Shown: positions 1,436-35,215, counted from the stretch's first letter. The stretch is 64,000 nt of DNA from Paracoccaceae bacterium (GCA_965116115.1 OZ220486.1:2144808-2208807), one strand, 5' to 3'. Notes: a model not told the origin generated them from the sequence alone. Numbers and translations: made by a program.

Positions 1436-1864
1436 TCAGTCGAACGGTGAGGGCGGCTTGAAGGAATCAGGGACGGAAGGAAGGCTGAATTGATCCTCCT
1501 TGTTCTCCGGCGCGGGAGTGTTTTCAAGTTCGGAGATCAGAGTCTGAACCGTCAGGCGCATTTCGGGAAGGTCAAGAACGGCAGTGTCCCAGACAGTCTC
1601 AGGGTCGGTACGGTGATACTCATGGGCCGGATGGTTGCGGAGACCGACAGCCTGCCGCAGCCCGGGAATCCGCGCCGCTAGTTCGGGCGAGTCCTGACCA
1701 AGGCGCGTCAGTGCTTCGCCGATTATCAGGAACCGGCGCTCGACCGTATCCTGTTTTTCTGTGTCGGCAGCATAGGTTTCGAAATCAGTATTCGCGATGT
1801 AACCCTTGATCGCCGCCGCGGACTTTTCGACATCCCGCAGCGAGACCAAGGGTCTATGCGCCAT
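1436..1864 (-). CDS. hepT: HepT-type HEPN toxin (DUF86 family)
   Basis: The internal ATG at 1864 of ORF 1436..2296 gives 142 aa. The R-x4-H-x-Y HEPN motif is present as LRNHPAHEY. The start overlaps the stop of the upstream nucleotidyltransferase gene (ATGGCGCATAG). Confidence 0.8.
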   Translation of the reverse strand: MAHRPLVSLRDVEKSAAAIKGYIANTDFETYAADTEKQDTVERRFLIIGEALTRLGQDSPELAARIPGLRQAVGLRNHPAHEYHRTDPETVWDTAVLDLPEMRLTVQTLISELENTPAPENKEDQFSLPSVPDSFKPPSPFD

Positions 1865-2165
1865 AGACAGTTTTCCGCGAGCGATCGATGGCCGCCAGCA
1901 GATATTCGTTGTCGATCGTGCCCAATCGGACCAGATCGACTTCGCGGCCGAGCGCATCTGCCAGGTCATCTTGGAGCCCGAACAGGCGGCGGGCAATGCC
2001 GGGCAGAAGCGGCGGCAGGAACTCAACCAGGAAATCGGCGTCGCTGGTTTCCGGATCGAAATCCGTTCCCCGCGCCGCGGAACCGAACAGATCCAGCCGC
2101 CGTACGCCGTGGCGGCGGCAGATTTCCGCGATCTTGTCTTTTCTGTCAGCGATCTCGGTGCGCAC
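1854..2165 (-). CDS. mntA: MntA-type minimal nucleotidyltransferase antitoxin
   Basis: 103 aa with the pol-beta-fold NTase motif LFGSAARGTDFDPETSDADFLV. It lies immediately upstream of, and overlaps, hepT. Confidence 0.8.
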   Translation of the reverse strand: MRTEIADRKDKIAEICRRHGVRRLDLFGSAARGTDFDPETSDADFLVEFLPPLLPGIARRLFGLQDDLADALGREVDLVRLGTIDNEYLLAAIDRSRKTVYGA

Positions 2166-2601: not shown

Positions 2602-4321
2602 TCAGCGTATTCGGGTTCCCAGGAGCCAGCATGCTTTTTCCTGCAGGGCTGTCGGCGCCGTGAACATGTCGAATTCCGCTGCGGTCTCCGAGGCCGGTTC
2701 AATGCGCATTTTCGAGAGGCCGGCGAGATGTTTCATAAGGCTGTGGAAGCTGAGAGCCGGCAGGCCGCCGGACGCGCGTTTTGATGACGCTTTGCGTTTT
2801 GCGCCGGGTGACGGCTCGGCCGCGGCTGCGGCGGATTCCCGCGCCGGCGGGTCTTCGTCATCGAACAGGATCGGTTTCAGGTCTTCCCGCATATGCTGTT
2901 CGACACAGCAGCGAGCATGCATGGCAGAACATGCGCCCGCACCCGGTCCGCCAGACGGCAGCAGACCGGACGAACCTTCAGATCGACGGTTTTCACAGCG
3001 CGGAACGCCCGTTCGACTTTTGTCAGACGCTTGTATGAGCGGACTGTTTCATCGGCGCTCATCACTGTTTCGGGCAGGCTGGTCCGCACGACATAGAAGC
3101 CGTCGAGCGCGGCTTCGGCGGCGATGTTTTTCCGGTTCCGGCGCTGAGTGAAACCGTCGTGACGGACCGTCACCATGAAATGCTTTCTCATCTTGTGCTT
3201 GTCCAAGGCCTTATCGACGCGGCGGGTGATCGCAACGGCGCCCTTGAGAGGGCGCGAAGCCCGTCCGGTCGCTGCTTCAATCAAGCGCAGGCGGGCTTCT
3301 GCCGCGTTCAGAAGCTCATCGCGGCGCCGGCGGCGCTCCTCCGCCGGCAAGGGGTTCCGGCAAACGACGAGACGCTCTCCGGGGAACAACTCCTCACAGG
3401 TGATTTCAGCCAGGTCCCGTTCGTCGAAGAGGGACGGCCGCAGGGTCCGGTTTTCCGCAAGCCTGCGCACAGCCGGAGCCCTCAGAGCGCTGATCCAGTC
3501 CAGCCCGGCCGGCTTGACATCCTCCCTGATCCGGGCTTCGGTCAGCATTCCCCGGTCGCCGATGACAACCGCCCGTTCAATGCCGAAACGGCAGCGTATC
3601 CGCCGGATGACGGTCGATGCTGTCGCCGGATCGGAAACATTGCCTTTGAACACCTCGACCGCGACGGGCCGCCCGTCCCGGTCGCAGAGCAGGGCGGACG
3701 CTGCTTGCATCTTGCCTTTTTTCTTATCCCGCGAGTGTCCGTACGCGGCTGGCCCGCACTTTGTTCCTTCCAGCTGAAATGACGTCAGATCCCAGAACAT
3801 GAGAGCTCCCTCGGCGATATGACGGCCCGCGAGGCGGGTTTCGATCCGCTCTCAGCGGGCTGGCAGCCAGTCCATCGCGGCATAAAGTTCAGCGGCATCG
3901 GTCTTGCCGAGGCCGAGCATGTCCCCGAGACTGCCGGCTCGGCTCTCGGGAGACAGAGCCTGAGCGGTAGCCAGCTCAGCTCTGGGATCGAGGATGCGGG
4001 CCGTGATCATGGCGGCGGCTGGATCGCGGTTGCGCGACCTGCGTGACGCGATAAGTTCCTCAATGCGCAGGTCCCTGAGTTTCCCGAGCGCCGCGGCGAC
4101 ATGGCCGTGCGGCTGCGAGGCTGTGACTTTGAAAGCCTTCGGAAGGCTTCGGGCGGATTTTCCTTTCACGCAGGCGCGGATCTCTTCGATCAGTCCGTCC
4201 GGCAGCTTGGAGAGGTCAGGAGAGTCCGCTTGCGGGATTTTTCAGCATTCTTAGACTGATAGGATTCGCGCAGCAGGATCGCGGGCGGCGAGTTTCGGTT
4301 CGGCACGGTCTCAATATACAT
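2602..4321 (-). pseudogene. IS1634-family (IS4 superfamily) transposase, split over at least 3 frames
   Basis: ORFs 2602..2922, 2877..3800 and 3852..4169 are consecutive pieces of one DDE transposase. Reverse translation from the ATG at 4321 gives MYIETVPNRNSPPAILLRESY, a typical IS1634-group N-terminus, then runs out of frame. Confidence 0.7.
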
Positions 4322-4525: not shown

Positions 4526-7500
4526 TTAAGGAGCGGCAACATCAATTACGCAAATCTTGATCTTGCGTTGTTCGTCGACTGACAATGTAGCCGTCAAACG
4601 TTTCTCAAGTTCCTGCGAATCACGCGGCGAATATCCCGTCGCAGGTGGGGTTGGTCGGCAATCTTCAGTATTTCCGAACCAAAACACAAGATAGATGCCA
4701 TGCCCTTCAGTTCCAGGATCCCTGATGTAGCGGGGGATTAACTGTGATCTTATCGCACTCCAGAGGTGGCGATCACAGCTTTTCTTGATCTCGATGGGCA
4801 CATTGTATTGGCGATGGGAAACACGAATGTCCACGCGGCTGTCATCAGCGCAGCGGGCTTCTGCTTCTGCTTCGATTCCAAGCCGCAGCAGCTTGGTCCT
4901 CAGATCCGACAACAGAGCATCACGGCAAACATTTTCCGGACGAGTATTCAGTGGGGTTTTTTGCCCACGGATATTCCAATACTGCCGCCAGTCGGACATG
5001 TTGCCGTCGCGTATGTCGCGCGCGATTTGGCGCAGGTGCTCAAAAGTCAGCGCAGCCAAATCCGCCGCATTCGCCGGCTTACCGTTTTTAAGTGTATCAA
5101 GCACCTGAGAGGTATCGCTGTAGACAAATTCAGCCTCTCGGCGGAGCGCCCTTTGTTTGTAGGCGGCGTTTTTGAGAAGGGTGTGCCAAGGGCGCAGGTC
5201 GTCGTCGGAAGACAAGGATTCGAGAGCGCGGGAAGCATCTTCCGTCAAAATAGCTGAAAGTCGTTCAATGAAGACCTTGACTTGGTCCGCAGCAATTATT
5301 TCCGGTGTGGCGAATGAGGGTTCTTTGAATGAAAATGGTCTGCAGGAGAAACCGATGAGTCGGATCAACAGTCGGATCAACAACTGTAAAGCAGGCACAC
5401 TCTGATGGCACTGCAGATCGGGCGAGCGGCCGGATTGCCAGCTCACGGCCTCTGCCAAGAAACCAATGCGGCGTTCTGTGGCGGAGACATAGTCATTCAG
5501 CCGATCGACGTAAGTATCAGGCGCAATGCACAAGCCAGCGGCAAGCCAATGTATGCGTTGTGCTACGTTCATATTAGGAAGTGCCTGTTTTTCATCAATC
5601 AACTCAAGAAGCTGCTCGGCATCGCAATAACGCCTTGCTGCCAGGAAAAGGCGGCGCAGGCTCGACAACTGACTGGATCTGCAACGCTTGGGGAATCGCT
5701 TGAGGAGGGGTATGGCAGCGATCCGGGCAACATCCGCGTGGTCCTCAAATTTCAGTTTATAGAGGCCTGCGGGCGATTCAGTTCCGTTGCGGAGTTGAGA
5801 GAGAACGGATCGTGACAGAACGTCGGCGACCAGGTCAGGACGGCGGGACAGCAAACAATCGAACCAACGAGGCGGACGGTCTGCGGGAATTCGCCCGGCT
5901 AGCTGAATAGGCACGGTGTAATGAACTGCCAGAGCCAGCCGCAAGAACTTTTCATCGACATCCATTTCGTCGAACAGCGCCGTCTCGCTAATCTCTTCCA
6001 TACCCGCCATGAATGGCAGCGCAAGGAAGTGCGTTCGTTTTGAGGTTCCGAGTCGTATGATTTCCCTGTCCGAGGGAAGTTCTTTCCGTTCCATGGTTTT
6101 ACGGAAGCTGAATAAGACTGCCTCGACCAAGCTACTATCGCCGGCCAGGAGAGCATTCAGTCTTTCTCTTGGCGAACTGCCCTGAACGTCAATGTAACCG
6201 CCGAAATATACTACGGCAAGTTCGTGCAACAGCGCGGGATCAGCTCTGTTTCCGAACAGGTCATCCTCAAGCGGTTTCACTTCGTCATGCCAGTTCGGCT
6301 GCAAGGCCTCCAGCTGAGTTCGCCTGCCGTTCCCGGAAGCGTTCCCGTCGGGAGCGCGCACTTCAAATTCTGAGATTTTCCTGGTAAATATATGTTTGAG
6401 ACCAGCGTATCCAGCCAGACGCCTCAATACAACTTCGCGGGAAAGGTCGTTACTGGAGCGGCCGTAGCGGAGGTACTTCGCAGTTTTGCCTAAGAGCCAG
6501 TCGGCAGCGGCTGCGTTTTCAGCGACGATCGCTTGATCAAGGCACCAGAGACCGAAATCCGGCGGAGGTGCGGCACCGAAAAGCCTGCCCTTCTGTTCCT
6601 TGTACATGCAGCTTGTGAACCCGTACTGCTGGGCGCATTCGGGCTGGCCGATACACCTCTTGAGGCCCATGGCCAGCAGGGCCTTCCACGTGCTCGGGCG
6701 GTCTTCCAGCCACTCCCGAATAACTCGAAATTGTTGTCCGCCGTGCCTACGGAATTCCAAGCCGCCTGCGTATGCTGCCGATCCCAGCCGGTTGAATAAG
6801 AGGGTCAAGTCCGCCTCGGCCCCGGGCAACTCAAGAAATCCGATTAAGAGCTTTGAGGACAACGAGTCGATTAAAGAAGCGTTAAAGCTAAATCCGTGTG
6901 CGCTATCTTTTAAAGACAGTGAATCGCAGCGTTCAGCAAATTGGTCAAGAAGCACGACGAGTTGGTCTGTTGTCGACTTCTTAAAAAGTTGCTCGGTCCA
7001 AAAATATTTGTACAAATAATTCCCTGGTATTCGCCGGAAACGGAGATATCGCATGATCTCTGTCTCTGATATTATTGCTGGATAGAGAGTTGACAGCAGA
7101 CGGCAAAGCAGAGAGTCGTCGGGATCCGGCACTTCGCCCGTAAAGACGTCGTCAGTGAGCGCTTTGAGTTCAGCGGAAGCGCCAGCGTCGTTTTTCCTTT
7201 GCCGCAGGAACGCTTCTATGGCGCGATGCCTGATCCTCGGCCACCGGGTCTCATCGCGCAGCAACTTCATCAGCGGATCGGCGAGTCCCGGAACGGAAAC
7301 TCCGTATCGGAAAGCCTCGACTAAGATGGCGATGAAGGATTGCTGCGAGTCCTCTCGGGACGGCGCGGTCAGGATTTCACGGTAATGCTGTTCCATATCG
7401 GGGGAAATCAGATCGCCGAGCCGTGAATCCAGTTGAAGGGTTAAGATAAATTGTGGATTTGCGGCAGTTTCTCGCCGGAGGCCTTCAAGCAGCGCACGTT

Positions 7501-8662
7501 TTTCACTTTGTGAAAAGTCGCGGGCGTCTCCGTAAAGAACCGTTCCCAAAGGATCGCGCCTGATGACCTCCGCCCGGCTGGACTTGCTGTGAGCCGCCAG
7601 CCATGCTGACAGGCCCCGCAGCGCTGAAACTACTGCACTGTCATGCCATGTGATCAATGCGAGAATTCGCCCGACCGGCAGTCCTTCATCAATAAGACCA
7701 GCCAAATATCCGGCCGCGAGAAACTCCGCGGTCTGGCGATGAACGGGAACCGCCCGGCGCTGCGTCTGGGTCTCGAACAGTTTGCTCCGAAGACAACTGC
7801 GAAGCATCGTTTGATTTTGTCCCGGTATGTCATCAAGTTTAAGGAAGCGGTTGTCGCTGTCTTCCGCGGACAGCGTGTAACCGTCGGCCCCGGTCAGCAG
7901 AAGTATGGCGCAAAGTTTCCCGCTTGCATGCATCAAATCAGAAATACCGCTACTGTCGGGCTGCGCTATTCGATGATCATCATTGTGTTCCCGCAGCAGG
8001 GTGCGGCAAGCCATATTGAATGTTTGCTTCCTGGACACAGGCCAATCCCCTTGCGCTCCGACTGCGGCCGCAAGCATTTTCAGGCTTTGAGGATTGGCCA
8101 ACAGCCCTTGGACGTCCCGATCCTGGGCCGAGGAGATGAAATTCTCAGGATCATCGATTGCGGCGGCCGCAGTAAGAATTCTGTGAATATCTTGACCGGA
8201 CAGCGGCTCAAGGCGCAGAACCGTAACGGTTTCGTCGGGCGATACTGTCTTGAGATTAATGCTGTCGTTCGCGCCGAACCAGTCCGCTTCCCGACAGGAC
8301 AGGCGGAACCGCGGGCGCCCCATTCGGTCGAGTTTGGCGCGGATGCTGTCAAGAGGCGTACGTCCGTCGGCTTTTCCAGCCCGGCTCTCATCCAGTCCGT
8401 CGATAAAGAGGATTTTATCGTGCTGCTCAGGCTTTTCTTTGAAGGTCAGAAAATCGCGCACGGTTAAGAAAATGCCGCCTTGGCGTTCGGATTCATGTTT
8501 GAAAACAGTAGTCTTGCCGGAGCCCGGCGGGCCGAGCAGCACATAGGCCGCCTTATCTGCCCACTTTTCTACAGGTCTTGACAGAAATTCTGATCGGTCA
8601 GAAGGATCGCTCTGCGAAATCTGCGCAATTTCGCGGCACTTCCGTGGAACGAAATCATTCAT
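4526..8662 (-). CDS. Large STAND/NACHT-like P-loop NTPase with helical repeat region and C-terminal PD-(D/E)xK nuclease-like domain
   Basis: Walker A LLGPPGSGKTTVF and Walker B KILFIDGLDES lie near the N-terminus. About 1000 aa of helical sequence follow. The C-terminus has VDIRVS...NVPIEIKKS (D...E-x-K). The ATG at 8662 overlaps the upstream stop as ATGA, so 8662 is preferred over 8677. GC is about 50% against about 63% in the flanks (by eye). Confidence 0.75.
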   Translation of the reverse strand: MNDFVPRKCREIAQISQSDPSDRSEFLSRPVEKWADKAAYVLLGPPGSGKTTVFKHESERQGGIFLTVRDFLTFKEKPEQHDKILFIDGLDESRAGKADGRTPLDSIRAKLDRMGRPRFRLSCREADWFGANDSINLKTVSPDETVTVLRLEPLSGQDIHRILTAAAAIDDPENFISSAQDRDVQGLLANPQSLKMLAAAVGAQGDWPVSRKQTFNMACRTLLREHNDDHRIAQPDSSGISDLMHASGKLCAILLLTGADGYTLSAEDSDNRFLKLDDIPGQNQTMLRSCLRSKLFETQTQRRAVPVHRQTAEFLAAGYLAGLIDEGLPVGRILALITWHDSAVVSALRGLSAWLAAHSKSSRAEVIRRDPLGTVLYGDARDFSQSEKRALLEGLRRETAANPQFILTLQLDSRLGDLISPDMEQHYREILTAPSREDSQQSFIAILVEAFRYGVSVPGLADPLMKLLRDETRWPRIRHRAIEAFLRQRKNDAGASAELKALTDDVFTGEVPDPDDSLLCRLLSTLYPAIISETEIMRYLRFRRIPGNYLYKYFWTEQLFKKSTTDQLVVLLDQFAERCDSLSLKDSAHGFSFNASLIDSLSSKLLIGFLELPGAEADLTLLFNRLGSAAYAGGLEFRRHGGQQFRVIREWLEDRPSTWKALLAMGLKRCIGQPECAQQYGFTSCMYKEQKGRLFGAAPPPDFGLWCLDQAIVAENAAAADWLLGKTAKYLRYGRSSNDLSREVVLRRLAGYAGLKHIFTRKISEFEVRAPDGNASGNGRRTQLEALQPNWHDEVKPLEDDLFGNRADPALLHELAVVYFGGYIDVQGSSPRERLNALLAGDSSLVEAVLFSFRKTMERKELPSDREIIRLGTSKRTHFLALPFMAGMEEISETALFDEMDVDEKFLRLALAVHYTVPIQLAGRIPADRPPRWFDCLLSRRPDLVADVLSRSVLSQLRNGTESPAGLYKLKFEDHADVARIAAIPLLKRFPKRCRSSQLSSLRRLFLAARRYCDAEQLLELIDEKQALPNMNVAQRIHWLAAGLCIAPDTYVDRLNDYVSATERRIGFLAEAVSWQSGRSPDLQCHQSVPALQLLIRLLIRLIGFSCRPFSFKEPSFATPEIIAADQVKVFIERLSAILTEDASRALESLSSDDDLRPWHTLLKNAAYKQRALRREAEFVYSDTSQVLDTLKNGKPANAADLAALTFEHLRQIARDIRDGNMSDWRQYWNIRGQKTPLNTRPENVCRDALLSDLRTKLLRLGIEAEAEARCADDSRVDIRVSHRQYNVPIEIKKSCDRHLWSAIRSQLIPRYIRDPGTEGHGIYLVFWFGNTEDCRPTPPATGYSPRDSQELEKRLTATLSVDEQRKIKICVIDVAAP

Positions 8663-9924
8663 TGGTAATCGAACCATTCAGAAGCGGGCGTTGAAAGAAA
8701 CTCCGAAACCGGAACACCATCCTTCCCGACAACGACCGCCGCTAAGACTGGGAATCGCTCTGCGAATCGTTGAAGCCCGCTTGTCTTTGTCTTGTGCGCT
8801 CCGCTCTTCACCTCGAAGACAACCAGTTTTCGCCCGCGTGTCAGAACGAAGTCCACCTCGCAGTCGTTTTCGCGCCAATAGTGCAGGCTGTGTTCGGGCG
8901 CACCCGTGTTGAACAGGTGTGCGCCTGCGGCGCTTTCGACAAGGCGTCCCCAATAACTCCGGTCTGCTTTCGCTTCCTCGAACGTATATCCCGAGGCAAC
9001 CGACGTCAGCGCGGTGTTAAGAACGTTTAGCTTGGGACTGGAGGATCTCCGTCTATGAGACCCGGCGGCGTATTTGGTAAGACCGGCAATCAGACCCGCG
9101 TTCGACAGAAGGTCCAAATACCGCGCCAGGGTCGTCGTGTTGCCGGCGTCCTGAAGCTGACCGAGCATCTTGTTGTATGAAAATATCTGCCCGGAATATT
9201 CGGCGCCGAGCTGGAACAGCCGCTTCAGGAGCGCGGGTTTGTCCACCCGCTGCATCGCAAGTATGTCGCGCTCGATATTGGGTTCGACCAGTGCCTCGGC
9301 GATGTACGCGCGCCATCGACTTTGTTCTGCAACGAGAGGAGCCGCTCCCGGATAGCCTCCGAAATAGACGTAACGCTGGAGATCAAAGCCGAATGCCGCC
9401 GACATTTCGGCGAAGGACCAGTGCATGAGACGGACGGTCTCATACCTGCCGGCAAGACTTTCGCTCATTCCTTTCTGCACAAGCAAAGGAGCAGACCCCA
9501 ATAGAATGACATGGATAGGGCGGTCATGCCGACGGTCTGCGTCCCATAGACCTTTGACGGTCTCAGACCAGTTCGGAATTTTCTGAATCTCGTCAATCGC
9601 CAACACATAGCCCTGGCCGGACCGCCTGGAGACCATCCGCGCCTGTTCCCAAATTCGAACCAGCCATCGTGTGTCTCGCGGGACGTTTGGCCGGCCCGCG
9701 GATTCAGCAGTCAAACCGCCTAAGTCCGGGAACCGGGGAAGCACGGCGGGATCAGGTTCGTCGACGGACACATATTCAAATGGCCGTTTCAACTGCCCGA
9801 GCGCCTGCTGAACCAGCGTGGTCTTGCCGGTTTGGCGCGGACCGGTCACGATAATGAGCCGTTGAGGTTTCTCACTCAAGCGGTTGAGTAAAGTGGAAAT
9901 CTGGGTTCGTTCATAAGTTCGCAT
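8659..9924 (-). CDS. AAA ATPase of the AAA_14/DUF4143 (COG1373-like) architecture
   Basis: 421 aa. Walker A VTGPRQTGKTTL and Walker B-like VLAIDEIQKIP are present. The C-terminus has CEVDFVL...LVVFEVKSG, a PD-(D/E)xK-like motif typical of DUF4143 proteins. The gene is translationally coupled to the STAND gene. Confidence 0.75.
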   Translation of the reverse strand: MRTYERTQISTLLNRLSEKPQRLIIVTGPRQTGKTTLVQQALGQLKRPFEYVSVDEPDPAVLPRFPDLGGLTAESAGRPNVPRDTRWLVRIWEQARMVSRRSGQGYVLAIDEIQKIPNWSETVKGLWDADRRHDRPIHVILLGSAPLLVQKGMSESLAGRYETVRLMHWSFAEMSAAFGFDLQRYVYFGGYPGAAPLVAEQSRWRAYIAEALVEPNIERDILAMQRVDKPALLKRLFQLGAEYSGQIFSYNKMLGQLQDAGNTTTLARYLDLLSNAGLIAGLTKYAAGSHRRRSSSPKLNVLNTALTSVASGYTFEEAKADRSYWGRLVESAAGAHLFNTGAPEHSLHYWRENDCEVDFVLTRGRKLVVFEVKSGAHKTKTSGLQRFAERFPVLAAVVVGKDGVPVSEFLSTPASEWFDYQ

Positions 9925-9939
9925 ATGAGATTTCTATTA

Positions 9940-9957
9940 TATTGAGTAAAATTACTC
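9940..9957. promoter_or_regulatory. 18-bp perfect palindrome (ttgagtaaaattactcaa) in the leader of the AAA/STAND operon
   Basis: The palindrome sits 16-33 nt upstream of the ATG at 9924, inside an AT-rich stretch. It looks like an operator. No cognate regulator was identified. Confidence 0.4.
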
Positions 9958-10814
9958 AAGAACAATTCAATATTGGCAGGATCCGAAAATCCCAACGGCG
10001 GCAGGGATAGAACCCGTTCATGGTTCAGTGCTCGCATGGCTCTTGAAAACGGCCACATCACGACCCTTGGAGTCGGCCGCCCTGCGGGTTCGATCGCCAG
10101 CGCACGGATAACGTCGGCCGGAGGCGCAGAGATGAACAAATTCTGAAATTTGCTAAGCATCCGGCAAGTGTTTCCGAAAACGGGATCATTTGCTGCCCGC
10201 GGTCATTGAAACATTCATCGGAGGTGCGGAATGCCGGACCGTCGTTTCCTCATGAATCGACTGGTTTGAAATTAAGATCAACTGGCTCTTCCCGAAGCGC
10301 GTCAAGAACGGGCTGTCTCCGCTTGCGGGCGGTCTTGATCTGTGTCCGCGGCACCGCACAGATCCTGGCGCTTCGCTCGCTCCGGCAGCGGCCGGATGCT
10401 CTTTGGCGTGCTTTCGGCATCTGCTGGCCCTGCCGCCGAATGGTGGGGTCAGCTCACCGACACCGAACGCGACGAATGGCGCGACAAGGTGGGCCGGTTC
10501 ATGGTCGGGAAAAATGGCGAAGAAGTGCGGATTCGCGGGAAACGAACCGAGCGCAGGGATAGTGACATTGCCAAAGATGCCTATGATCACACGGTCACCC
10601 ACGTTCACTGACCGGTCAGTGACCGTGGATACCCCGGAAACGCTGGCGAAACTGGCAGCAGAAGCTCGTGCGGACGCGGCGGAACGGGCGCGGGATCAGG
10701 CTGAGACCGACCGGGATCATCGGCGTGACATGGCTGAAAAACCGGCAGAGCGTCGCCGAAGCCGGTGGCCGTGGCAATGCTTGCATTTTTTGCAAGCATG
10801 TCTTATCTGACCTC

Positions 10815-11072
10815 ATGCACAACAAACACCGCAAAACCCTTGCGACGGTTTTCACCGACCCGGTGTCAGCAACGGTCGAATGGTCCGCTATCGAAAATCT
10901 GCTGATCGCAGCCGGGGCGCGGGTGATCAAAGGCGGCGGCTCACGGGTTCGCTTCGAGAAGGACGGCGAAGTCGAAACCTTCCACCGCCCGCACCCGGCC
11001 AAGGAAGCCAAGCGGTATCAGGTCCGCGCCGCCCGCACGTTTTTGGAAAGGATCGGAGTCACACCACGATGA
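10815..11072 (+). CDS. hicA: HicA-family toxin
   Basis: Internal ATG of ORF 10668..11072. MHNKHRKTLATVFTDPV...GSRVRFEKDGEVETFHRPHPAKE is the HicA-like pattern. The stop overlaps the hicB start (ATGA). Confidence 0.7.
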   Translation: MHNKHRKTLATVFTDPVSATVEWSAIENLLIAAGARVIKGGGSRVRFEKDGEVETFHRPHPAKEAKRYQVRAARTFLERIGVTPR

Positions 11073-11410
11073 CGAACACCATGACCTACAAAGGCTATTC
11101 TGCCCGCATCGAATACGACGACGAGGACGGCATTCTGACCGGCCAGATCGCGGGCATCCGCGACGGGATAGGTTTCCACGCTGACAACGTGGAGGAGCTG
11201 CGCGCCGCATTTCATGAGGCCGTGGATGACTACATCGAAACCTGTGCCAAGATCAGCAAGGACCCCCAGAAGCCCTATTCTGGCCGGGTCATGTTCCGCG
11301 TCGATCCCGATGTTCACCGAAAAGCCGCTCTGGCGGCGGAACTGGCGGGCAAAAGCCTCAACCAATGGGCCGAGGATGTGCTGGACCGCGCTGCACGTGA
11401 GACGGCCTAG
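11069..11410 (+). CDS. hicB: HicB-family antitoxin
   Basis: MTNTMTYKGYSARIEYDDEDGILTGQIAGIRDGIGFHADNVEELRAAFHEAVDDYIETC plus a C-terminal RHH-like KSLNQWAEDVL. Start is the internal ATG of ORF 10880..11410. Confidence 0.8.
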   Translation: MTNTMTYKGYSARIEYDDEDGILTGQIAGIRDGIGFHADNVEELRAAFHEAVDDYIETCAKISKDPQKPYSGRVMFRVDPDVHRKAALAAELAGKSLNQWAEDVLDRAARETA

Positions 11411-12767
11411 CGGTCTGTCATTGTTATATTGACAGCTACAGGGAATGCAGTTCAGTACGCGCGTCCTCGGCGGTGAACCGCTGTTTGACCGGGGCCGGGT
11501 CGGCGTTGCGCGCTTTTTCCCATGCCGAAACCTCGCGGCAGAGCGTCTCCCGGTCGGGAATGCGCCGGGAAAGGCGCTGACGGCTCAGCACGCTGATTTT
11601 GCTCTCGGCGATGTTCAGCCGGGTGCCGTGTTTCGGCGCATGATGAACTTCAAAACGCTCGTAGAGCCTGCCCGCCTGCTCCGGCGGGAAAGCGTAGTAA
11701 AGACTCGACAGCTCATGCCGTTGTCCATGGCCGGCACGATTTTTTTGCCGGGGAAGTGAATATCGGCGATGTCTCTGAGGAGCTCGGCGAAATCTTTCTT
11801 CGTCCGGCGGTCGGTGATTTTGACATGCCCTGGTCTGAAAGCGGCGCATGCACCATGAACAGATTCGCCGTCCCGTTGCGCTCGTATTCGCAGTCGAAGC
11901 GCGCCGGCCGGCCGGGAGCGGCAGGCAAAGCCGCGCGGACCTCCTTCGTCTGCTGCTTGCCCGCCTCGGCTGTGCAGATCAAGACCTCGTCCTCGCTGAA
12001 TTTCCGCTGACAGACCCTGAGCACATCCTCCATCGAGCATGCGAAGTCGCCGCTGTTCTCCGCCGGAATGCGCTGACACCGCGTAAGGTGCGGTTTCAAA
12101 TCGTTTTTTTAATGTCTTCCTGACCGTCTCCCGAGAAATGCTGTCAACGACATTCAATGCGACCAGCCGCTCGCTGAGCAGGGCCGGCGGCTGTGAGGAA
12201 CGCCCTTCGGGAGGTTCCGAACAGGCGATCATCGTCAGCTTCGCCTCGCCCTCGCCGTCAAGCTTCGGAGGAACGCGGTTCGAATGCGGCCTGCGCTCCA
12301 AAGCCGCCATACCCTCCTCGACGAAACGCCGGCGGAGCCGCTCGACCGTCGCCGTGCCGACCCCGACGGAATCGGCGGCGTCGGCATCAGTGCGCGAGCC
12401 GCTCTTCCGGTTCTGATCCGTGAGAAGAAGAATATGCGCCCGCCGCCGCCGCTCGGCCGAACCGCGGCCGGATGAAACGATCTCCTCTGATTCAGCCCGT
12501 TCATGATCTTCGAGCCGAATGCGCTGTATCTTGCGTCCGATTTGTTCCTGTCAGTCCGTCATAGCTTCCCGCCTCTTGAATCGCCGCCGGCGCGAAACAG
12601 GCCTCAGCCGCTGGATTCCTGCTCAGAATCCGGTTGAAACACCCGGCCGACAACATTTGTCTTCGTTCAGACTGAAGCTTCTGCTGCAACTTCAACAGAG
12701 TGTCAACACCGGAAATCAGGACGTCCTCCAAACCACGATTGCCATCATTATCACTGTGTCAGACTAC
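11410..12767 (-). mobile_element. IS630-family element, copy 1 (1358 bp, TA-flanked), transposase defective
   Basis: Ends are gcggtctgtcattgttatattg and cactgtgtcagactac, flanked by TA at 11408-09 and 12768-69. Transposase pieces lie in ORFs 11436..11849, 11713..12099 and 11615..12310 (HVKITDRRTKKDFAELL...MDN, HAPKHGTRLNIAE). Collinear with copy 2 at 53174..54531. Confidence 0.85.
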
Positions 12768-14666: not shown

Positions 14667-17155
14667 TCATACCCGCGGGGTTACGCGTGCAGCCGTGCGG
14701 ATATCGGCGATCTGAACGCCAAGGGCCATGAGTGTCTGACGCAGGTCGTTGAAAACCGGCTGAGCCCCTTCAGGATCAGAGATTGTCAGGATCGCCGTGA
14801 AGGGCACTCCGTCGTCGGGCATCTCCTCTTCAGCCCGCGTGAGATAGTTGACGGAAAGGCGCCAGCTCGAGGTCTTGCCGACGCCGAGCGGCATTTTCTT
14901 GGTGAAAACTTTGACCTGGCTCCACTTCATACTGTGCTTAATCAGTTCGGCTTCAATCATTGGAATCTCGCTCCGGCTTGGAAGGTGGACTAGATCCAAT
15001 CGGCCTTGCCATCTGCCGTCAGGCTGTTCTTGCTGAAGGGCAGCGTTGAGATTGATCCGCACGAATTCAGATCCGTATCTCTGATCAAGCGGCGGCGTGG
15101 ATATAAGTGTCAAGCGAACGGCCCCGCGACACTTCCCTCCGGGAGCGGCAAGAGAGGAAGGCCAGTAAAACCTGAAAGTCACTTGCTGATCACGCCTTAT
15201 CCGTGACGCGAACACCAAGGTGATCTCGTGATCGTCTGTTTCCAGGATATCCTCCATTGACATCGGAACGCCGAAACCTGCCAAATGACGGGCTACCGGG
15301 GCCAATGCTTTCATCTGAAGCGGCTGCGGAACCCAGGCGTTATGAATCAAGAGGCCGATCAGCGTCTCCCTTGAGACGTCTCCCTCAATGGCGTGGTCCA
15401 AGGCGGCAGCCGTTTTTGCAGCGAGAGGGGCCGCATAACTTGTGCCGCAATCACTGATGACATCGCCCTCAAGGTTAACGGAGAAGAGGGCATGGTCAAG
15501 AGGAGGCTGCGGAGAACCGGAACCGCCGACGTGAGCGATGTCAGTTTCACGCCGGTTCGCAAACCCGGCCCCCGCCGGCTGAAGCGGCATGGCGAAAAAG
15601 GCACAGAGATCGGATGGCCCGGCGGATTGACTGCGGTAACCGAAACATTTCGGACGCTCTCGGCCGGAGAGAGCAACCCGTCGTTGATTGACGCCGCTAC
15701 GTCCGCAAGCGCCTTTGTCGTGTCCTCTGACCATTCAGGGCGAAGATCGCGTGGATCAAGATTGCCGGCTGAAACGAAGATAATGGCATCGTTTTCTTCG
15801 GCAATGCGGTCGAGACGGGCCGCATGGAGACTGTATCGGTCAAAGGCCGCTTGCTGGATAATGTTCAGGCTCATGTTGAAGATGCGGACACCGTTACGTG
15901 CCCGCATTTCGCCTATCGCTGTTTCCACTTCGTCAAAAAACCCAGGCTAGCCCTGTGGATAATATGAAGCAAAAGCATCGGTACCTTCACTTGGAAACAC
16001 TGCGAGATCGACGAGTTCGGCTCCGTCGGATTCAGGACAGCACCGGGGGCCGTTGAGTGTCCTGCCCAAGACGGCGAGACCACCGATAAAAGAGCCATGA
16101 GCAAGGTTTTTATGTTCTTCAGCAAGGAGGCCCCAACGGTCAATCACCCAATCCGACAGCACCGAGCCCATACCGCCGTCTATAATGCCGATCTTTGGAT
16201 ATGTTCCGGCCTTTTTCCGGGGCGGCACCACCGCCGTGACCGGGCGCACACGGCCTTGAAATGCAGTTGTTCGCGTGATGATGCCAGGGAGCGAAATCTT
16301 GCGAACAAGAGGATGACCGTCCAGGAAAGTCAAGAGACGGTGATTTCGCTCCCGTGATGGATCGAATGCGGCAGCCGTACGATGCCGATCCGCCTGAGGC
16401 GGCGGATCGAGGAGATGTGTCTGAGCAGACGCCGTGCGGGATACCCGGACCGACAGAAGCGGCTGGGAGCGGGCGTGGGCGGGAAGTCTACGAACCTTCA
16501 ACCCTTCGCCAAGCGAATCGAGGCCAGCCGTGAAAGACGTGAACAGGCGACGATGGCTTTCACTGAGTGAATCCCGATCGCTCTGTGCGGGAAGCGTTTT
16601 GAACAGCTCCACCTCATAGCTGCCGCCAGTGATCGGGTTTGACAACCAGGCCACAGCTTCTTCCAGTGAGAAGTCTCTTCTGTCGCTTTCGCTGTAGATC
16701 TCAATTCGTTCGATGGCACCCGATTCGCTGCGGCGCGTTGAGGGATACGGAACCTGCATTCCTTGGATTTGACGGAATCTGGTGTTGTCCTCGGTGCCTG
16801 CGATTTCCTCGGCGACCTGCAGCAATGCGGGAGGCCGCGCTTCGACAAGGATAACGCCAAGGTCGGTTCCGCCTGCGATTGGAGTGCGCTCCGGCTTGAA
16901 GAGCGTCCTGAATGGTCGATGGCTTTTCGCCAATGCCGTACGGCGCAGAATCACCTTCACGTAGCCCAGGTCGGTGTGAGGTTGATTGGCCAAGCCGTGC
17001 GCCAGCGTTTTAAGTTGCTTAATAAGGCGTGCCTTGTGCTGTCGAAATTCCCGGTCGCGGTTCGCAAAAAAATCCTTTCTCGGTCCGCCCCCGGCAGTTT
17101 CCCGAGATTCCTCGTAATTCTCAGGATTCAGGATGATCTGGATCGGGTTACCCAT
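14667..17155 (-). pseudogene. S8 (subtilisin-like) serine peptidase, IetS-like, inactivated by one in-frame TAG and one frameshift
   Basis: Catalytic motifs are GIIDGG (Asp), AHGSFIGG (His) and CGTSYAAP (Ser), spread over ORFs 15947..17155, 15359..15928 and 14667..15734. An amber codon at 15947-49 sits in frame (YYPQG*PGFFDEVETAIGEM). The frame changes near 15545-15555, between GPGLRTGVK and DIAHVGGSG. Confidence 0.75.
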
Positions 17156-18365
17156 CGTCGCTCACCTCGCCGCCGGCTTCTGGATAACGCTCTCCCAATT
17201 TCCCGATCCTACGGCTTACTGTGGATTTGTCGCGTCCGGCGACTTCCCCGATGTCGGCAAGTGAAAAGTCGAGTTCGGGATCATGTTTCATGGCACGGAA
17301 CAGGTTCGCCGTATCGCTGAACAACAGCTTCCGCCGGGTGCTGTCAATGCGAGCGCTGTTAAGCGTCGCGAACTGCCTGAGCGTGTCCAGCAATCCCCGC
17401 CGATCCTGACCTTTGATTATGACAGCCCTCTTATACGTCCGCGACAAAGACTCGATCTCAGCGCCTGTGCAGCCAGCCGTGAACCATGCGATCAGTCGTA
17501 TGTGGTTTTCAGGAACGCTGATCGGGGGCATTAAATGCCGGGCGATGGCAGTTCGCAGTTGGAAGTCCGGCTTCGGAATTTCGAGTTGCACATCAAAGCG
17601 CCGCCAGACAGCAGGGTCCAGCAGACGCTCATGGTTCGTGATCCCGACGGTGAGGCCGATGTCCTTGCGCATATCCAGATTCTGAAGCAGGGCGTTAACC
17701 ACACGCTTGATCTCCCCCACCTCCTGCGGATCATTGCGAAGCTTCGCAATGGCATCGAACTCATCAAGAAGCAGCAGACAGCGATGACGGTTCGCGAAAG
17801 CGAAAAGATTGCCTATGTTGCGTGCTGTCGTCCCGAGAAACGAAGAGATCAAACCGTCCAGTCTTGCCAGCACGACGGGCAGATCAAGTTGGCATGCGAT
17901 CCATTGGGCGAGGCGCGTCTTGCCGGTGCCGGGCGCGCCAAAAATGAGGCAGGCCTTCGGCGGCTGAAGCCCGGCGGCGGAGAGAGCTTCAATGTTGGCC
18001 CATTCTTCAATGACCGTCTTAATCGCGGCAGTGACCGTTGAGTTGAACAAAGGCGGGTCGGCGCGGATGTCCGCGGGGAATAAGAGTTCGGCCAGCGACG
18101 CAGCTGTTTCGCGGTCCACAGGGAGCGGCGTATTCGGGCTGAGGGTTTCCCCGGGCATTTGCGCTCTTGAACGCGTAAGCCGGCCCGGCGCTATCTCCTT
18201 GGTCCGTTCGGCTGCGGTGAGGAGGCGGTTCAGCGCCGCTGCTTGCCTGGTCTCTCCGTCCCGGGCGAGCGCGTCCTTCAGTCGCTCCACCTGCTTCCGC
18301 AATGCGGGGGAGGCATCCGCCATCGCTGCCCGGCAGAGGGCCTGGATTATCGGGAAGTGTTCCAT
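17148..18365 (-). CDS. AAA+ ATPase, IetA-like partner of the S8 peptidase
   Basis: Walker A IFGAPGTGKTRLA and Walker B CLLLLDEFDAIA. The stop overlaps the peptidase start by 8 nt (ATGGGTAA). The ATG at 18365 is preferred over the TTG at 18386. Confidence 0.75.
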   Translation of the reverse strand: MEHFPIIQALCRAAMADASPALRKQVERLKDALARDGETRQAAALNRLLTAAERTKEIAPGRLTRSRAQMPGETLSPNTPLPVDRETAASLAELLFPADIRADPPLFNSTVTAAIKTVIEEWANIEALSAAGLQPPKACLIFGAPGTGKTRLAQWIACQLDLPVVLARLDGLISSFLGTTARNIGNLFAFANRHRCLLLLDEFDAIAKLRNDPQEVGEIKRVVNALLQNLDMRKDIGLTVGITNHERLLDPAVWRRFDVQLEIPKPDFQLRTAIARHLMPPISVPENHIRLIAWFTAGCTGAEIESLSRTYKRAVIIKGQDRRGLLDTLRQFATLNSARIDSTRRKLLFSDTANLFRAMKHDPELDFSLADIGEVAGRDKSTVSRRIGKLGERYPEAGGEVSDDG

Positions 18366-18713
18366 TTTGATTCCTGATCGGGGCAAAAAATTGTTTTGTT
18401 GCGCATAAATTATAATTTGTTGCGCGTCAATAACAATTAATTTCTTAATATTATAAAATCGTTGCTTAGTAATGACTTCCTTGCCGTAAATTCTCCACCG
18501 GCTATGAAAAGCGCCGGGGAACGACTGCCCGGCCGGACCACATACTCATAATATTACATGAGCTTGTCGGAAAACCTGTTTTGCCATCCGGCATTATGCA
18601 CCCCCTCTGACCGACAGCCCTTTACTTTTCAGAGTTACCTATAGTGTTGATTGTAGTGACGCATCGCAAGATCCTGCTCTCATGAGCACGGGAACCGGAA
18701 AATCCCCGCAGGG

Positions 18714-22909: not shown

Positions 22910-23145
22910 CTCAAAATACTAAAAATGATAAGCAAAAAACTTTTCAGGCAGGCACTATTTCGGCGGTTTGCAGGAACATTTTGGTCGAGATCGGCAGTTG
23001 GACGACGTTGCTGAACTGCCTCATCCCTGCCCGCTTTGTCCCTCGGCAACAAAAACAACCTTGAGCGGCCGCTTGACCGCCGTTCATACACTTATGTAAG
23101 AAACCGCTTATCGAATTTTGCCTTTTGAAGAGATGTAACTCCGCG

Positions 23146-26139
23146 ATGACGGCTCCGAAGATTTTTGATTCCTGCCACCCGCGCCCCGACGTTCTGGATG
23201 GCACTTTGTCAGAGGCCGATTTCGCGGCCGACTTGGCGCAAGTGGTTTCCGGTAAGGGACCGGCCGAATATACGAATCCGGCACGGTTTTTTGCCAACAC
23301 CTACCCGACAAGAGGGTTAAAAGACCTTTTGAAGAATGTCTGCGCCCGGTTGAACGGCGCCGGCAGTGAAGCCGCGTCAATTTTCCGTCTCGACACATCC
23401 TATGGCGGCGGAAAATCGCACGGTCTGATTGCGCTCTGCCATGCCGCTCGCCGTGGCTCCGAGTTGCAGGAACTTTCCCGTTTCGTCGATCCCGAAATGA
23501 TTCCCCGGGACCGTGTGCGCATTGCCGCCTTTGACGGCGAGAACGCAGACCCGGCTAACGGCCGTCGTATGGGCGCAGGTCATCTCGCCTATACGCCATG
23601 GGGTGAGATCGCTTGGTCGCTGGCCGGCGCCGAAGGTTATGAGCGGGTCCGCCTGAGCGATATGAAACGAGTCGCTCCAGGCGCCGAGACGCTGCGCGAG
23701 CTGTTTGGCGGCGAACCGACGCTGATCCTTTTAGATGAACTTTCTGTCTACCTGCGCAAGGCGGCCGCTCTCGGCCAGGCTCGCGAACAGCTGACCGCTT
23801 TCTTGACATCTCTGTTCAGGGCCGTGGAGGGTGAGCCAAACGCAGCTCTCGTCTTCACTCTGGCGATCGGCAAGGACGGGCGGGCAGGTGACGCTTATCG
23901 TGAAGAAAACGAGTTCATCTTCGACATCATGGCGGAGGCAGAGAGCGTGTCGGCGCGTAAGGCGACGTTGTTGAATCCCACCGAAGAAGACGAGACGATT
24001 CAAGTGCTTCGCCGCCGCCTGTTCGAATCCATTAACGACGCGGCCGCAGCCGCCGCGGCAGAGGCTTACCTGGCGCAGTGGAGGGCTCATTCTCAGGCCT
24101 TGCCGGAAAAAGTCGCACGGGCTGAGGCCGGCGCGGAGTTCCGTTCGAGTTACCCCCTTCATCCCGAGGTGCTTGACGTCCTGAAGGCCAAGACGGCGAC
24201 GCTCGGCAATTTCCAGCGAGTTCGGGGAATGCTGAGGCTGCTGGCCCGCACCGTGGCCCATTTATGGAAGCAGCGGCCTGCTGACGCGACAGCCATCCAC
24301 CTGCACCACATTGATCCCGGCCATGAACCCATACGCCAAGAGATTGTGACGCGCCTCGGCCAGTCTCAGTTCGCGCCTGCGATTTCCAATGACGTGTCCG
24401 GAGGGTCAGCGGACAAAGCAGCGCTCGCTGAGGAAATTGATAACGGGCATTACGGGCGAATGCCGCCATACGCTTCCTATGTGGCCCGCACCATCTTCAT
24501 GCACACGCTGGCATTCAACGATCCTCTGAAAGGGGTATCAGCGGAACGGCTGCGTTACTCGGTTCTTTGCCCGGCAACGGACATCAGCTTCATTGATGAT
24601 GCGCAGAAGAAATTCATCGCGGATTCCGCCTATCTGGACGACCGTCCCGGGGCGACGATGCGTTTTGCGGCCGAGGCCAACCTTCAAAAAATGATACGCA
24701 ATACGCAAGATGGCATCGACGCCGGGGAGACGCGGGCGGAACTGAACGACCGGATCCGCACCATATTCAACGGCAGAACGCTGTGTGCGGTGCCATTTCC
24801 CGGCGGTCCGTTCGATGTAGCTGACGATGTCGCGGACGGGCGTCCGAAGCTGGTCATTCTCGGTTACGAGGCTGTGACAGTGGGCGAATCGGAAGATTCC
24901 GTTCCGGAGCTGATCCGGCGCATCTACAAGAGGAAGGGATCGGACAGCTCTGCGCTGCGCATGCTTCGCAACAATCTTGTCTTTGTGGCCGCCGATGAGG
25001 CGCGCAAGGAAAACATGCGCCGCAATGCCCGCCGCCGGCTGGCGCTGCGCGAGTTGAAGAAGCCGGAACGCTTGGTCGAATTAGCGCAGCACCAACAGGA
25101 AAAAGTCCGTGAGGAGGAAGCGCGCTCAGAGCAGGAACTCGCGCTTGCCGTTCAGCAATGCTACCGGCATGTATACTATCCGTCGCGTAACAGCAGCTCC
25201 GGCGGCGTAGATCTGGCGCATACAGCCATCGATATGCCCTCGGCCTCCGAAAGACCGGGCACGGGGCAGCAACAGGTCGTGCAGGCTTTACGGCGTCTGA
25301 ACAAGCTTCGCCTTTCAGAGGATAAACCGGATTCTCCGACTTATGTGCGCGACCGGACGCCTCTCAAAAAGGGACCAATGACGACGCTGTCGTTGCGCGA
25401 TGAATTCCGTCGTGACCCTGCGTTGACAATACTTGTAGGCGACGGCATCTTTGTTCGCGGCGTGAAGCAAGGCATCGAGCAGGGCGAGTACGTGTACCGC
25501 CGTGGAGAACTGCTTTGCGGGCAAGGCGATCCGGAGGTCGAGATCGAAATCGATGAGCAGTCAACGGTCCTGACAACAGCCTATGCGAAAAATAAGGGAA
25601 TTTGGCCACGACCACCGTTACCGCCACGTCCCAAGAAAAAACCTGAAGACAAAAATGGGGGTAACGACAAACCCCCGGGCCCAGACGGCCCTGAACCGGA
25701 TTCGTTTTATGCCGAGGGGCCTCTCCCAGAAGCGCTCGTGTGTATTTGGGACCAAGCCCGTGCGAAAAAAACCGAGTCCATCGCCGTAATGACCGTTCGC
25801 ATGTTCGAGGCCGGCGACGCCTTCCGGCTTCTCGGTGCTGTCAATGCAGTCCAAGGAGCGAAGCCTATTGTCACGCTGGAAGGCGGTTACGAGACCCAAG
25901 ACAACGGTACTCTCGAATTGGATTTCCGGGGGCCGGTTTCCGACGCGCAGCCGCTCCGGGAATTCTTGGAGCCGCAGTTACGGGCCGCCGTTTCGCAGAA
26001 TCTTAAAGCGGGATTTGAGTTGACCTACGAGAACGGTTTGCCGATGAAAGGCGACGCTGCGGAAAAACTGACCGAACGGCTCACCCGGTTCGCGCGCGGT
26101 GCGGCATTTGTTACGGCCATAGCGAAGGCGAGGACGTAA
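23146..26139 (+). CDS. DUF499-family ATPase (BrxC/PglY-like)
   Basis: About 997 aa from the ATG at 23146. N-terminus is KIFDSCHPRPDVLDGTLSEADFAADLAQV. P-loop is RLDTSYGGGKSHGLIAL and Walker B is PTLILLDELSVYL. The overall layout is typical of DUF499 proteins. Confidence 0.8.
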   Translation: MTAPKIFDSCHPRPDVLDGTLSEADFAADLAQVVSGKGPAEYTNPARFFANTYPTRGLKDLLKNVCARLNGAGSEAASIFRLDTSYGGGKSHGLIALCHAARRGSELQELSRFVDPEMIPRDRVRIAAFDGENADPANGRRMGAGHLAYTPWGEIAWSLAGAEGYERVRLSDMKRVAPGAETLRELFGGEPTLILLDELSVYLRKAAALGQAREQLTAFLTSLFRAVEGEPNAALVFTLAIGKDGRAGDAYREENEFIFDIMAEAESVSARKATLLNPTEEDETIQVLRRRLFESINDAAAAAAAEAYLAQWRAHSQALPEKVARAEAGAEFRSSYPLHPEVLDVLKAKTATLGNFQRVRGMLRLLARTVAHLWKQRPADATAIHLHHIDPGHEPIRQEIVTRLGQSQFAPAISNDVSGGSADKAALAEEIDNGHYGRMPPYASYVARTIFMHTLAFNDPLKGVSAERLRYSVLCPATDISFIDDAQKKFIADSAYLDDRPGATMRFAAEANLQKMIRNTQDGIDAGETRAELNDRIRTIFNGRTLCAVPFPGGPFDVADDVADGRPKLVILGYEAVTVGESEDSVPELIRRIYKRKGSDSSALRMLRNNLVFVAADEARKENMRRNARRRLALRELKKPERLVELAQHQQEKVREEEARSEQELALAVQQCYRHVYYPSRNSSSGGVDLAHTAIDMPSASERPGTGQQQVVQALRRLNKLRLSEDKPDSPTYVRDRTPLKKGPMTTLSLRDEFRRDPALTILVGDGIFVRGVKQGIEQGEYVYRRGELLCGQGDPEVEIEIDEQSTVLTTAYAKNKGIWPRPPLPPRPKKKPEDKNGGNDKPPGPDGPEPDSFYAEGPLPEALVCIWDQARAKKTESIAVMTVRMFEAGDAFRLLGAVNAVQGAKPIVTLEGGYETQDNGTLELDFRGPVSDAQPLREFLEPQLRAAVSQNLKAGFELTYENGLPMKGDAAEKLTERLTRFARGAAFVTAIAKART

Positions 26140-26664
26140 ATGGCGCGGCTGGATCGGGTGTCGGATGCGGAGACGCCCGCGCTTTCACCGCGCTACGAAT
26201 TGCGGGTGCGGCGTCATGGGCCGGCAGACTCCTCCTATGAGGTTTGGCAGCTGCCGTCAGCTGCCTCGCCGCATTTGTCCTGTGCGCAGCGTGTCGCCGG
26301 GCTGCGGGGCCGCAATCTCGACTTTGTCGAGCACCGGGTGCTGAGAAGGCTGTCACAGGCCGGCATCCGACTGGGACAGCATAAGGATGCGACGAAGCGC
26401 GGTTATATGCTTAGCGAAGACGCGGCACTCATACTGGGCCTGCTTTTCCGAGCTCTGGCGCCGATGCGCAGCCGTGCCAACATGCGGGCCGTAACGGAAG
26501 GTATCGAGGCGATGGGCCGCGAAGAGGCGGCTTACTGGCTGGGCATGGCCATGCACCGCAGGAACCCCCGGAGGGTTTTAACGGCTCTCAGGTGCCTTTT
26601 GACGGAGCCGAAGCGGCGGCACCAATGCCGCAGAACAAGTTCAGAGAAAAAACCTAATGGATAA
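26140..26664 (+). CDS. Small conserved-partner-like protein (possibly the DUF3780-type protein that accompanies DUF499/DUF1156 genes)
   Basis: 174 aa. The start abuts the DUF499 stop (TAAATG) and the stop overlaps the next start (TAATG). The family assignment is from memory of the gene neighbourhood only. Confidence 0.55.
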   Translation: MARLDRVSDAETPALSPRYELRVRRHGPADSSYEVWQLPSAASPHLSCAQRVAGLRGRNLDFVEHRVLRRLSQAGIRLGQHKDATKRGYMLSEDAALILGLLFRALAPMRSRANMRAVTEGIEAMGREEAAYWLGMAMHRRNPRRVLTALRCLLTEPKRRHQCRRTSSEKKPNG

Positions 26665-28619: not shown

Positions 28620-28704
28620 GGGAGATTAGCCGTGTTAGCGTTGTGCTTGTGGGGAATTTAATCCAGAGATTTTTACCCCCGCGTGGTTTGCATTAAACGG
28701 TCTT

Positions 28705-30447: not shown

Positions 30448-30571
30448 ATGCCAAAGGGAGCGCACAATTGCTGGGGTTTCTAGAAAGCAATTTTAATGAT
30501 TCAATGCAGCGCAGCGATGGCATAATTGATCACATCATGTCATTAGCAGTGGATAAAGGAGGATAAGTTTT

Positions 30572-32277: not shown

Positions 32278-32284
32278 CGCGCCC

Positions 32285-35209: not shown

Positions 35210-35215
35210 CGCCGC

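Follow-up and report, generated by a model that had tools for sequence, protein, structure and literature searches.

We found that a stretch of 64,000 nucleotides of DNA from a Paracoccaceae bacterium (GCA_965116115.1 OZ220486.1:2144808-2208807, hereafter the window) carries two genes, one for an AAA+ ATPase and one for a large protein of predicted NACHT type, which are held together by overlapping stop and start codons at most of the surveyed loci of one widely distributed clade. Neither gene is new, the large protein being a relative of the EruA family and the ATPase a member of PDC-S01; the new part is their reciprocal, clade-wide and translationally coupled pairing. The pair is probably a two-gene antiphage module, made up of an EruA-family NLR-like receptor and a dedicated ATPase-nuclease partner. 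An earlier note on this DNA had described two overlapping open reading frames (ORFs) of 421 and 1378 amino acids with an ATGA junction. Both were present on the minus strand, head to tail and with the ATPase gene upstream, and so were all the motifs it had quoted (GPRQTGKT and EVDFVL...FEVKSG in the ATPase; GPPGSGKT, ILFIDGLDES and VDIRVS...VPIEIKKS in the large protein).

9924..8659, minus strand: gene 1, ATPase, 421 amino acids
8662..4526, minus strand: gene 2, large protein, 1378 amino acids, stop codon at 4526-4528
8659..8662, minus strand: ATGA stop/start overlap of both genes, read from the sequence

The junction of the two genes reads ACCAATGAATGA (...TAC CAA TGA), with the start codon ATG occupying 8662-8660 and the stop codon TGA 8661-8659, so that the two overlap. 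Initiation at an alternative in-frame ATG, at 8677, would lengthen the large protein by 5 residues to 1383 amino acids.

Relatives of the large protein numbered at least 567 in the species-representative genomes of GTDB, and the best 80 of these were surveyed for co-occurrence. In 78 of the 80 loci an ATPase ortholog was observed directly upstream on the same strand, its end adjoining the NACHT start; the co-conservation of the two genes, which the earlier note had left to such a survey, was thus found. The surveyed loci came from at least 12 phyla, with NACHT proteins 36-69% identical and ATPase orthologs 55-81% identical. Translational coupling was conserved across the phyla: 65 of the 78 junctions were 4-nucleotide NTGA overlaps and 7 were 1-nucleotide overlaps. 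The remaining junctions comprised a 2-nucleotide gap at two loci, a 17-nucleotide overlap at one, and gaps of 145-189 nucleotides at three, where the ATPase frame stopped early, most likely because of frameshifts. The order and strand of the pair were constant amid variable flanks, and no third conserved gene was found within the 4-kb flanks, where no other family recurred in more than 9 of the 80 loci. The pairwise distances of the ATPase and the NACHT protein were correlated, with r = 0.89.

The reverse test was made with the best 80 metagenome loci fetched by the ATPase alone, of which only those with at least 600 nucleotides downstream were counted. A NACHT gene lay immediately downstream in 19 of 20 cases when the ATPase was at least 54% identical, and in 5 of 35 when it was less than 54% identical. 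Several metagenome loci (L112-L115, L126 and L158) carried ATPases of ~50% identity with a NACHT relative (31-37% identical) directly downstream, indicating that the paired clade reaches beyond the 80 genomic loci and that its boundary is not sharp.

Solo relatives of both genes were also observed. On plasmids of Coxiella and Thermus, ATPases at most 49% identical stood without a NACHT gene, and on those of Vibrio, Pantoea and Bradyrhizobium, EruA relatives ~30% identical stood without the ATPase; the protein of the Bradyrhizobium plasmid pCW1_1, which at 1190 bits is above the EruA cutoff, was encoded by a solo gene. The same cutoff is passed by L061 and L068, which are basal in the paired clade and carry the ATPase. 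In a neighbour-joining tree all paired genes fell in one clade, which a long branch separated from the solo relatives. The obligatory coupling that had been claimed earlier therefore stands within that one clade (78/80 and 19/20), and coupling is obligatory only there, the distant relatives of both genes being solo. The two loci without the ATPase (L073 and L075) kept an intact NACHT ORF and nested within the paired clade, implying secondary loss of the ATPase. Upstream of the NACHT gene of L075 (L075:5379-7836) a serine-recombinase-like ORF was found together with a 570-residue ATPase that by eye resembles OLD/AAA_15-type proteins, and a replacement of the ATPase through rearrangement is suggested for this locus. 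The simplest history is that an EruA-type gene recruited a PDC-S01-type ATPase once, and that both genes have since been passed on together, by inheritance and by horizontal transfer.

Some genomes contained two copies of the whole pair (L004/L022, L058/L072 and L001/L041, with NACHT proteins 68%, 52% and 40% identical, respectively), and in one case the copies were 48 kb apart on the same contig. Multiple diverged copies are a pattern typical of receptor repertoires. The close relatives (L001-L080) included Poriferihabitaceae, Latescibacterota, Binatia, Tectimicrobiota and Dadabacteria, from bins labelled APA, RHO, CAR and COS. For nearly all of them the names of the metagenome-assembled genomes, from which alone the habitat was taken, point to marine-sponge symbionts and suggest extensive horizontal spread in one habitat. 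A phage-borne system was considered and rejected, as 2.9 million viral contigs held only four distant relatives, none of them with the ATPase.

The large protein matched the NCBIfam model NF058535, 'NACHT domain-containing antiphage protein EruA', with 873.2 bits (E 4.5e-262). The match was collinear and of full length, residues 20-1375 corresponding to model positions 8-1317 of 1318. The relatives L061 (1018 bits), L068 (1032 bits) and L083 (the Bradyrhizobium protein, 1190 bits) pass the cutoff of this model, which is 1000 bits. Nothing significant was found for the large protein in PADLOC, Avs models included, or in Pfam, the copy searched being one without PF28130; in precomputed Pfam results, PF28130 was hit by all but 5 of 120 listed homologs. 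Sequence comparison with PDB gave only P-loop noise, and a blastn search for an E. coli relative returned no match. The protein collection contained more than 2600 homologs of the large protein. Its N-terminal part was mapped as follows.

7658..8548, minus strand: NACHT module, residues ~39-335 (nucleotide-binding domain, helical domain and winged helix), from AlphaFold2 and Foldseek
8510-8533, minus strand: Walker A motif G44-T51 (GPPGSGKT), from the sequence
8387-8401, minus strand: Walker B motif D88-G-L-D-E92, from the sequence

The AlphaFold2 model of residues 1-600 had a predicted local distance difference test (pLDDT) score of 81, that is, moderate confidence. Its top 17 matches in PDB by Foldseek were to NOD2, NLRC4, NLRP3, NAIP5 and NLRP14, with E-values of 4e-8 to 1e-4. 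The Walker B sequence DGLDE satisfies the signature D[GAS]hDE, which is specific to NACHT proteins (Kibby et al., bioRxiv 10.1101/2022.07.19.500537). Across 79 orthologs, P46, G47, G49, K50, D88, L90, D91, E92, H308 and R309 were invariant. The predicted fold, together with this signature, identifies the N-terminus as a NACHT-type STAND nucleoside triphosphatase (NTPase), which agrees with the NACHT module proposed earlier. The large gene thus falls within EruA, a family that already has a name, though with a score under the threshold, and its fold and signature make it a bNACHT.

The remainder of the protein was divided into two parts.

4943..7645, minus strand: helical middle region, residues ~340-1240, presumed sensor, from AlphaFold2 models and divergence
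4529..4939, minus strand: predicted C-terminal PD-(D/E)xK nuclease domain, residues ~1242-1378 (~135 residues), from AlphaFold2 and Foldseek

The AlphaFold2 models covered residues 1-600 and the last 249 residues, and in them residues 340-600 and 1130-1260 were helical. The earlier note had spoken of about 1000 residues of helical repeats; helices were indeed seen in these two segments, but when the middle region was cut into four chunks and these were compared profile to profile, no internal repeats emerged (E ≥ 0.024). This region was the most divergent of the protein, with a mean pairwise identity of 36%, the NACHT module reaching 52% and the tail 56%, and we infer a sensor role for it. The model of the last 249 residues (pLDDT 78.8, again of moderate confidence) showed an alpha/beta core. 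Its best Foldseek matches, Can1, PspGI, Can2, Hjc, NucS/EndoMS, Mus81 and PaqCI, were all of the PD-(D/E)xK type and mutually consistent, with probabilities of up to 1.00. E1268, D1278, E1291 and K1293 (the last two in E1291-I-K1293) were invariant in the 79 orthologs. The predicted structure accordingly gives the C-terminus the fold of a PD-(D/E)xK nuclease, its catalytic residues intact, and the domain is a predicted nuclease, as had been proposed. The architecture of the large protein, NACHT followed by a variable helical domain and a nuclease, is uncommon but not unprecedented.

The ATPase showed Pfam matches to AAA_14 (7.8e-25) and DUF4143 (7e-28), and is an AAA+ ATPase with a DUF4143 tail. 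It matched the PADLOC model PDLC04791 (PDC-S01) with an E-value of 1.6e-164 over residues 4-418 of 421. In PADLOC, then, the ATPase was assigned to a single-gene candidate and the large protein to nothing, so that the check proposed earlier places one half of the pair and leaves the pair itself unassigned. No relative of the ATPase was detectable in PDB by sequence.

9817..9843, minus strand: Walker A motif G28-P-R-Q-T-G-K-T-T36, from ortholog conservation
9589..9594, minus strand: Walker B motif D111-E112, invariant in 74 orthologs
8806..8859, minus strand: PD-(D/E)xK-type motif of the tail, E356-V-D358...E371-V-K373, from conservation

Among the 74 orthologs, G28, P29, R30, Q31, G33, K34, T35 and T36 were conserved at 97% or more, and E356, D358, E371 and K373 of the tail were invariant. 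Since the Walker A, Walker B and tail motif residues are conserved, the ATPase is predicted to be active. Weak matches to YraN and CARF_PDDEXK were found at the tail motif with PADLOC and NCBIfam. DUF4143/COG1373 is catalogued in the PD-(D/E)XK superfamily as a family of unknown function (PMC3424549). By its motif and the family catalogue, the tail is a putative PD-(D/E)xK nuclease domain. PDC-S01, a putative defence candidate of one gene, was identified by guilt-by-embedding. According to its description it is an ATPase with a fused PD-(D/E)xK domain, and it is reported to rank fourth in frequency among the defence candidates of prokaryotes while being experimentally unvalidated (PMC12988326). 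The ATPase evolves more slowly than the NACHT protein, the mean pairwise identities being 63% and 43%. The possibility that the two proteins are duplicates of each other was rejected, as the hhalign alignment was confined to the P-loop and the D..ExK core (E 0.07).

What we infer for the favoured antiphage module, namely the trigger, the oligomerisation, DNA as the substrate and the whole contribution of the ATPase, would run as follows. The NACHT switch at the N-terminus would probably be ADP-locked when idle, and the long, fast-evolving helical domain would most likely recognise a phage-derived trigger. Binding of the trigger would lead to nucleotide exchange and oligomerisation of the NACHT module, and the PD-(D/E)xK tails gathered in this way would most likely cleave DNA, an activation logic established for nuclease-bearing Avs proteins and proposed for bNACHT25. 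The ATPase would be a dedicated partner in the paired clade, most likely in a physical complex with the NACHT protein, where it may act as a DNA-engaging co-effector or as a checkpoint or licensing partner for the NACHT nuclease. Since it evolves slowly, the ATPase is probably no arms-race interface, and since both catalytic sets are preserved, it probably does more than scaffold or inhibit. Our preference for a complex in which the ATPase is a dedicated partner, as co-effector or for licensing, is of low confidence.

Several points weigh against this reading. The co-occurrence survey consists of the best 80 of the at least 567 genomic relatives, almost all of them metagenome-assembled genomes. 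The solo relatives of both genes imply that neither needs the other in principle. The EruA score of 873.2 bits is under the curated equivalog cutoff of 1000, and the Foldseek E-values of the tail, from 1e-3 to 0.1, are weak. The word 'antiphage' rests on the NCBI family name and on context. A bolder form of the reading, in which the pair is an obligate hetero-oligomeric immune complex of two different NTPases and a prokaryotic counterpart of paired NLRs, is possible though doubtful in our judgement; the AAA+ partner would then engage DNA or license the NACHT oligomer, and both nuclease tails would be needed for killing.

It is rather unlikely that the PDC-S01 ATPase-nuclease and the EruA-type NACHT nuclease are each an autonomous single-gene defence system and merely travel together as a mini-island. 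Each family does occur alone on plasmids (EruA-like genes in Bradyrhizobium, Vibrio and Pantoea, the ATPases in Coxiella and Thermus), PADLOC models PDC-S01 as a single gene, and each of the two proteins retains a complete catalytic set. However, independent passengers would not be expected to keep a 4- or 1-nucleotide overlap in 72 of 78 loci while identity drops to 36% across at least 12 phyla; the association in both directions, the correlated distances and the fixed order and strand amid changing flanks argue in the same sense. We regard it as improbable that the ATPase is mainly a negative regulator, an antitoxin or guard that restrains the NACHT nuclease until infection disturbs the ATPase. 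Its upstream position and translational coupling do recall toxin-antitoxin and guard layouts, and its higher conservation (63% versus 43%) would be expected of a protein without contact to variable phage ligands. But solo EruA relatives do without such a regulator, STAND proteins are normally self-autoinhibited, and an invariant nuclease motif in the ATPase would be superfluous for a pure inhibitor. Moreover, the two loci that lost the ATPase (L073 and L075) keep the NACHT ORF intact.

A role outside defence, with the pair working for a mobile element or in the repair or maintenance of DNA, for example as an ATPase-assisted nuclease for element propagation, appears highly improbable. Insertion sequence (IS) debris on both sides of the pair in the window and the wide horizontal spread across phyla would fit such a role, and transposons also use AAA+ ATPases with winged helix-turn-helix domains (Kibby et al., bioRxiv 10.1101/2022.07.19.500537). 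Against it, no transposase or recombinase is conserved beside the pair and no terminal inverted repeats were found around it, and the NACHT fold, the sensor-like divergence, the diverged copies per genome, the defence island and the NCBIfam name all point to immunity. A transposon-like cassette was rejected for the same lack of flanking inverted repeats and of a conserved neighbour gene.

With EruA, the large protein in the window shares the N-terminal NACHT module, the long helical region and the C-terminal nuclease-like tail. The two differ in that the clade in the window is tied to a DUF4143 ATPase (none of the NCBIfam models with Eru names is for this ATPase), whereas the one cutoff-passing example inspected outside the paired clade (Bradyrhizobium pCW1_1) is a solo gene. 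Similarity to HyoA (NCBIfam NF058534) is weak and long-range: the large protein scored 159 bits, far under the cutoff of 1200, and in its relatives the matches run from the NACHT module to the C-terminus, which suggests that HyoA is a sister family of similar layout and that the protein in the window is not a member. For the ATPase, the AAA_14 and DUF4143 architecture (COG1373) and the end-to-end model match are those of PDC-S01. But PDC-S01 is defined as single-gene, and the ATPase in the window departs from that definition by its ATGA overlap and its place in the paired subclade of ~54% identity and above.

Two further families of immune NTPases invite comparison. Avs proteins, in the logic ascribed to Gao et al. 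in 2022, reportedly join a STAND NTPase and a helical sensor to a PD-(D/E)xK-type nuclease that is activated by oligomerisation. The general logic of the large protein is the same. In Avs, however, the effectors are N-terminal, the NTPase lies outside the NACHT clade and the systems are single-gene, whereas the order here is NACHT, helical region and nuclease; no Avs model of PADLOC matched either protein. Paired NLRs, such as NAIP-NLRC4 of animals and the sensor/helper pairs of plants, consist of two NTPase-containing immune proteins that act as an obligate pair. The likeness to them is by analogy only; the partner here is an AAA_14/DUF4143 ATPase and not a second NACHT protein, and the P-loop is the only place where the two NTPases can be aligned. 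Among bNACHT proteins, C-terminal effectors have already been noted, in a layout called infrequent, and hyperactivating mutations of the winged-helix-domain histidine (WHD-His) have been described (Kibby et al., bioRxiv 10.1101/2022.07.19.500537). The inverted layout to which attention had been drawn earlier is thus rare but not unrecorded. The invariant His308 of the large protein lies in the region equivalent to WHD-His of bNACHT proteins such as bNACHT25. The distinguishing features are the effector at the extreme C-terminus with the NACHT module at the extreme N-terminus, and the coupling to a second NTPase-nuclease, the systems of Kibby et al. being single-gene.

The earlier note had not recognised the combination as a named system. 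This can be upheld for the pair as a unit and no longer for its parts, the large protein being an EruA relative and the ATPase PDC-S01: the reciprocal coupled pairing was not found in PADLOC v2.0.0, NCBIfam or the searchable literature. A full-text literature search returned no relevant paper on EruA or HyoA, the primary EruA publication included, and a 2026 preprint surveying STAND proteins makes no mention of EruA, HyoA or DUF4143. As the primary EruA paper was not located, the pairing would already be known if a paired locus was tested there. Because the component families are already catalogued, the finding refines the known picture and does not represent a new kind of system. Its value lies in tying one subclade of PDC-S01, in both directions and in at least 12 phyla, to an NLR-like, predicted NACHT nuclease, which provides a concrete functional context for the ATPase. 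The locus would define a version of the bacterial NLR with two NTPases and two predicted nucleases, and from the pair it might be learned whether NLR-like receptors of bacteria rely on helper ATPases of their own. If the obligate hetero-oligomer were true, it would be the first mechanistic role for PDC-S01.

The region ahead of the ATPase gene was inspected for expression signals and base composition.

9925..10185, minus strand: upstream leader, 260 nucleotides, 50% guanine-cytosine (GC)

A perfect TATAAT was found in the leader at 9941-9936, 11 nucleotides ahead of the ATG of the ATPase, and a consensus promoter scan upstream of the ATPase gave no complete sigma-70 site on the minus strand. 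The contrast of ~50% GC in the operon with ~63% in the genome had been overstated, since the operon has a GC fraction of 0.55 (55.0%) versus 0.595 (59.5%) in the remaining window, a modest dip.

The window is a defence island, in keeping with the candidate defence setting proposed from the outset, and the following features were identified around the pair.

10668-11410, plus strand: HicA/HicB, toxin-antitoxin-type pair, upstream of the operon
11436-12310: IS630-like debris (HTH_32/DDE_3), upstream of the operon
2877-3800: DDE_Tnp_1 transposase remnant, downstream of the operon
1436-2165, minus strand: MNT nucleotidyltransferase (PADLOC PDC-S09) and HepT-like RNase, toxin-antitoxin-type pair, downstream
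17148-18386, minus strand: IetA (PADLOC PDLC02195, 517 bits), intact
15947-17155, 15359-15928 and 14667-15734, minus strand: IetS in three consecutive ORFs that jointly cover the IetS model
23125-26139, plus strand: HmaC/DUF499, of the Hma system (23125-38398)
32267-35209, plus strand: HmaB/DUF1156 methylase, of the Hma (helicase-methylase-ATPase) system
35216-38398, plus strand: HmaA SNF2 helicase, of the Hma system

Of the flanks described earlier, HicAB, the IS630-like debris and a transposase remnant were recovered; the assignment of the remnant side to the IS1634 family could not be confirmed. The split of IetS into three ORFs indicates that this IetAS copy (14667-18386) is frameshifted and probably dead. 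The solo plasmid relatives adjoin Ppl, Abi and SIR2 genes. Within the Hma system, ~5 kb of ORFs sit between HmaC and HmaB, and a metallo-beta-lactamase-fold gene occupies 31159-32277. The embedded ORFs at 27636-28661 and 29562-30443 gave no PADLOC match, and by the logic of guilt-by-embedding both are defence candidates.

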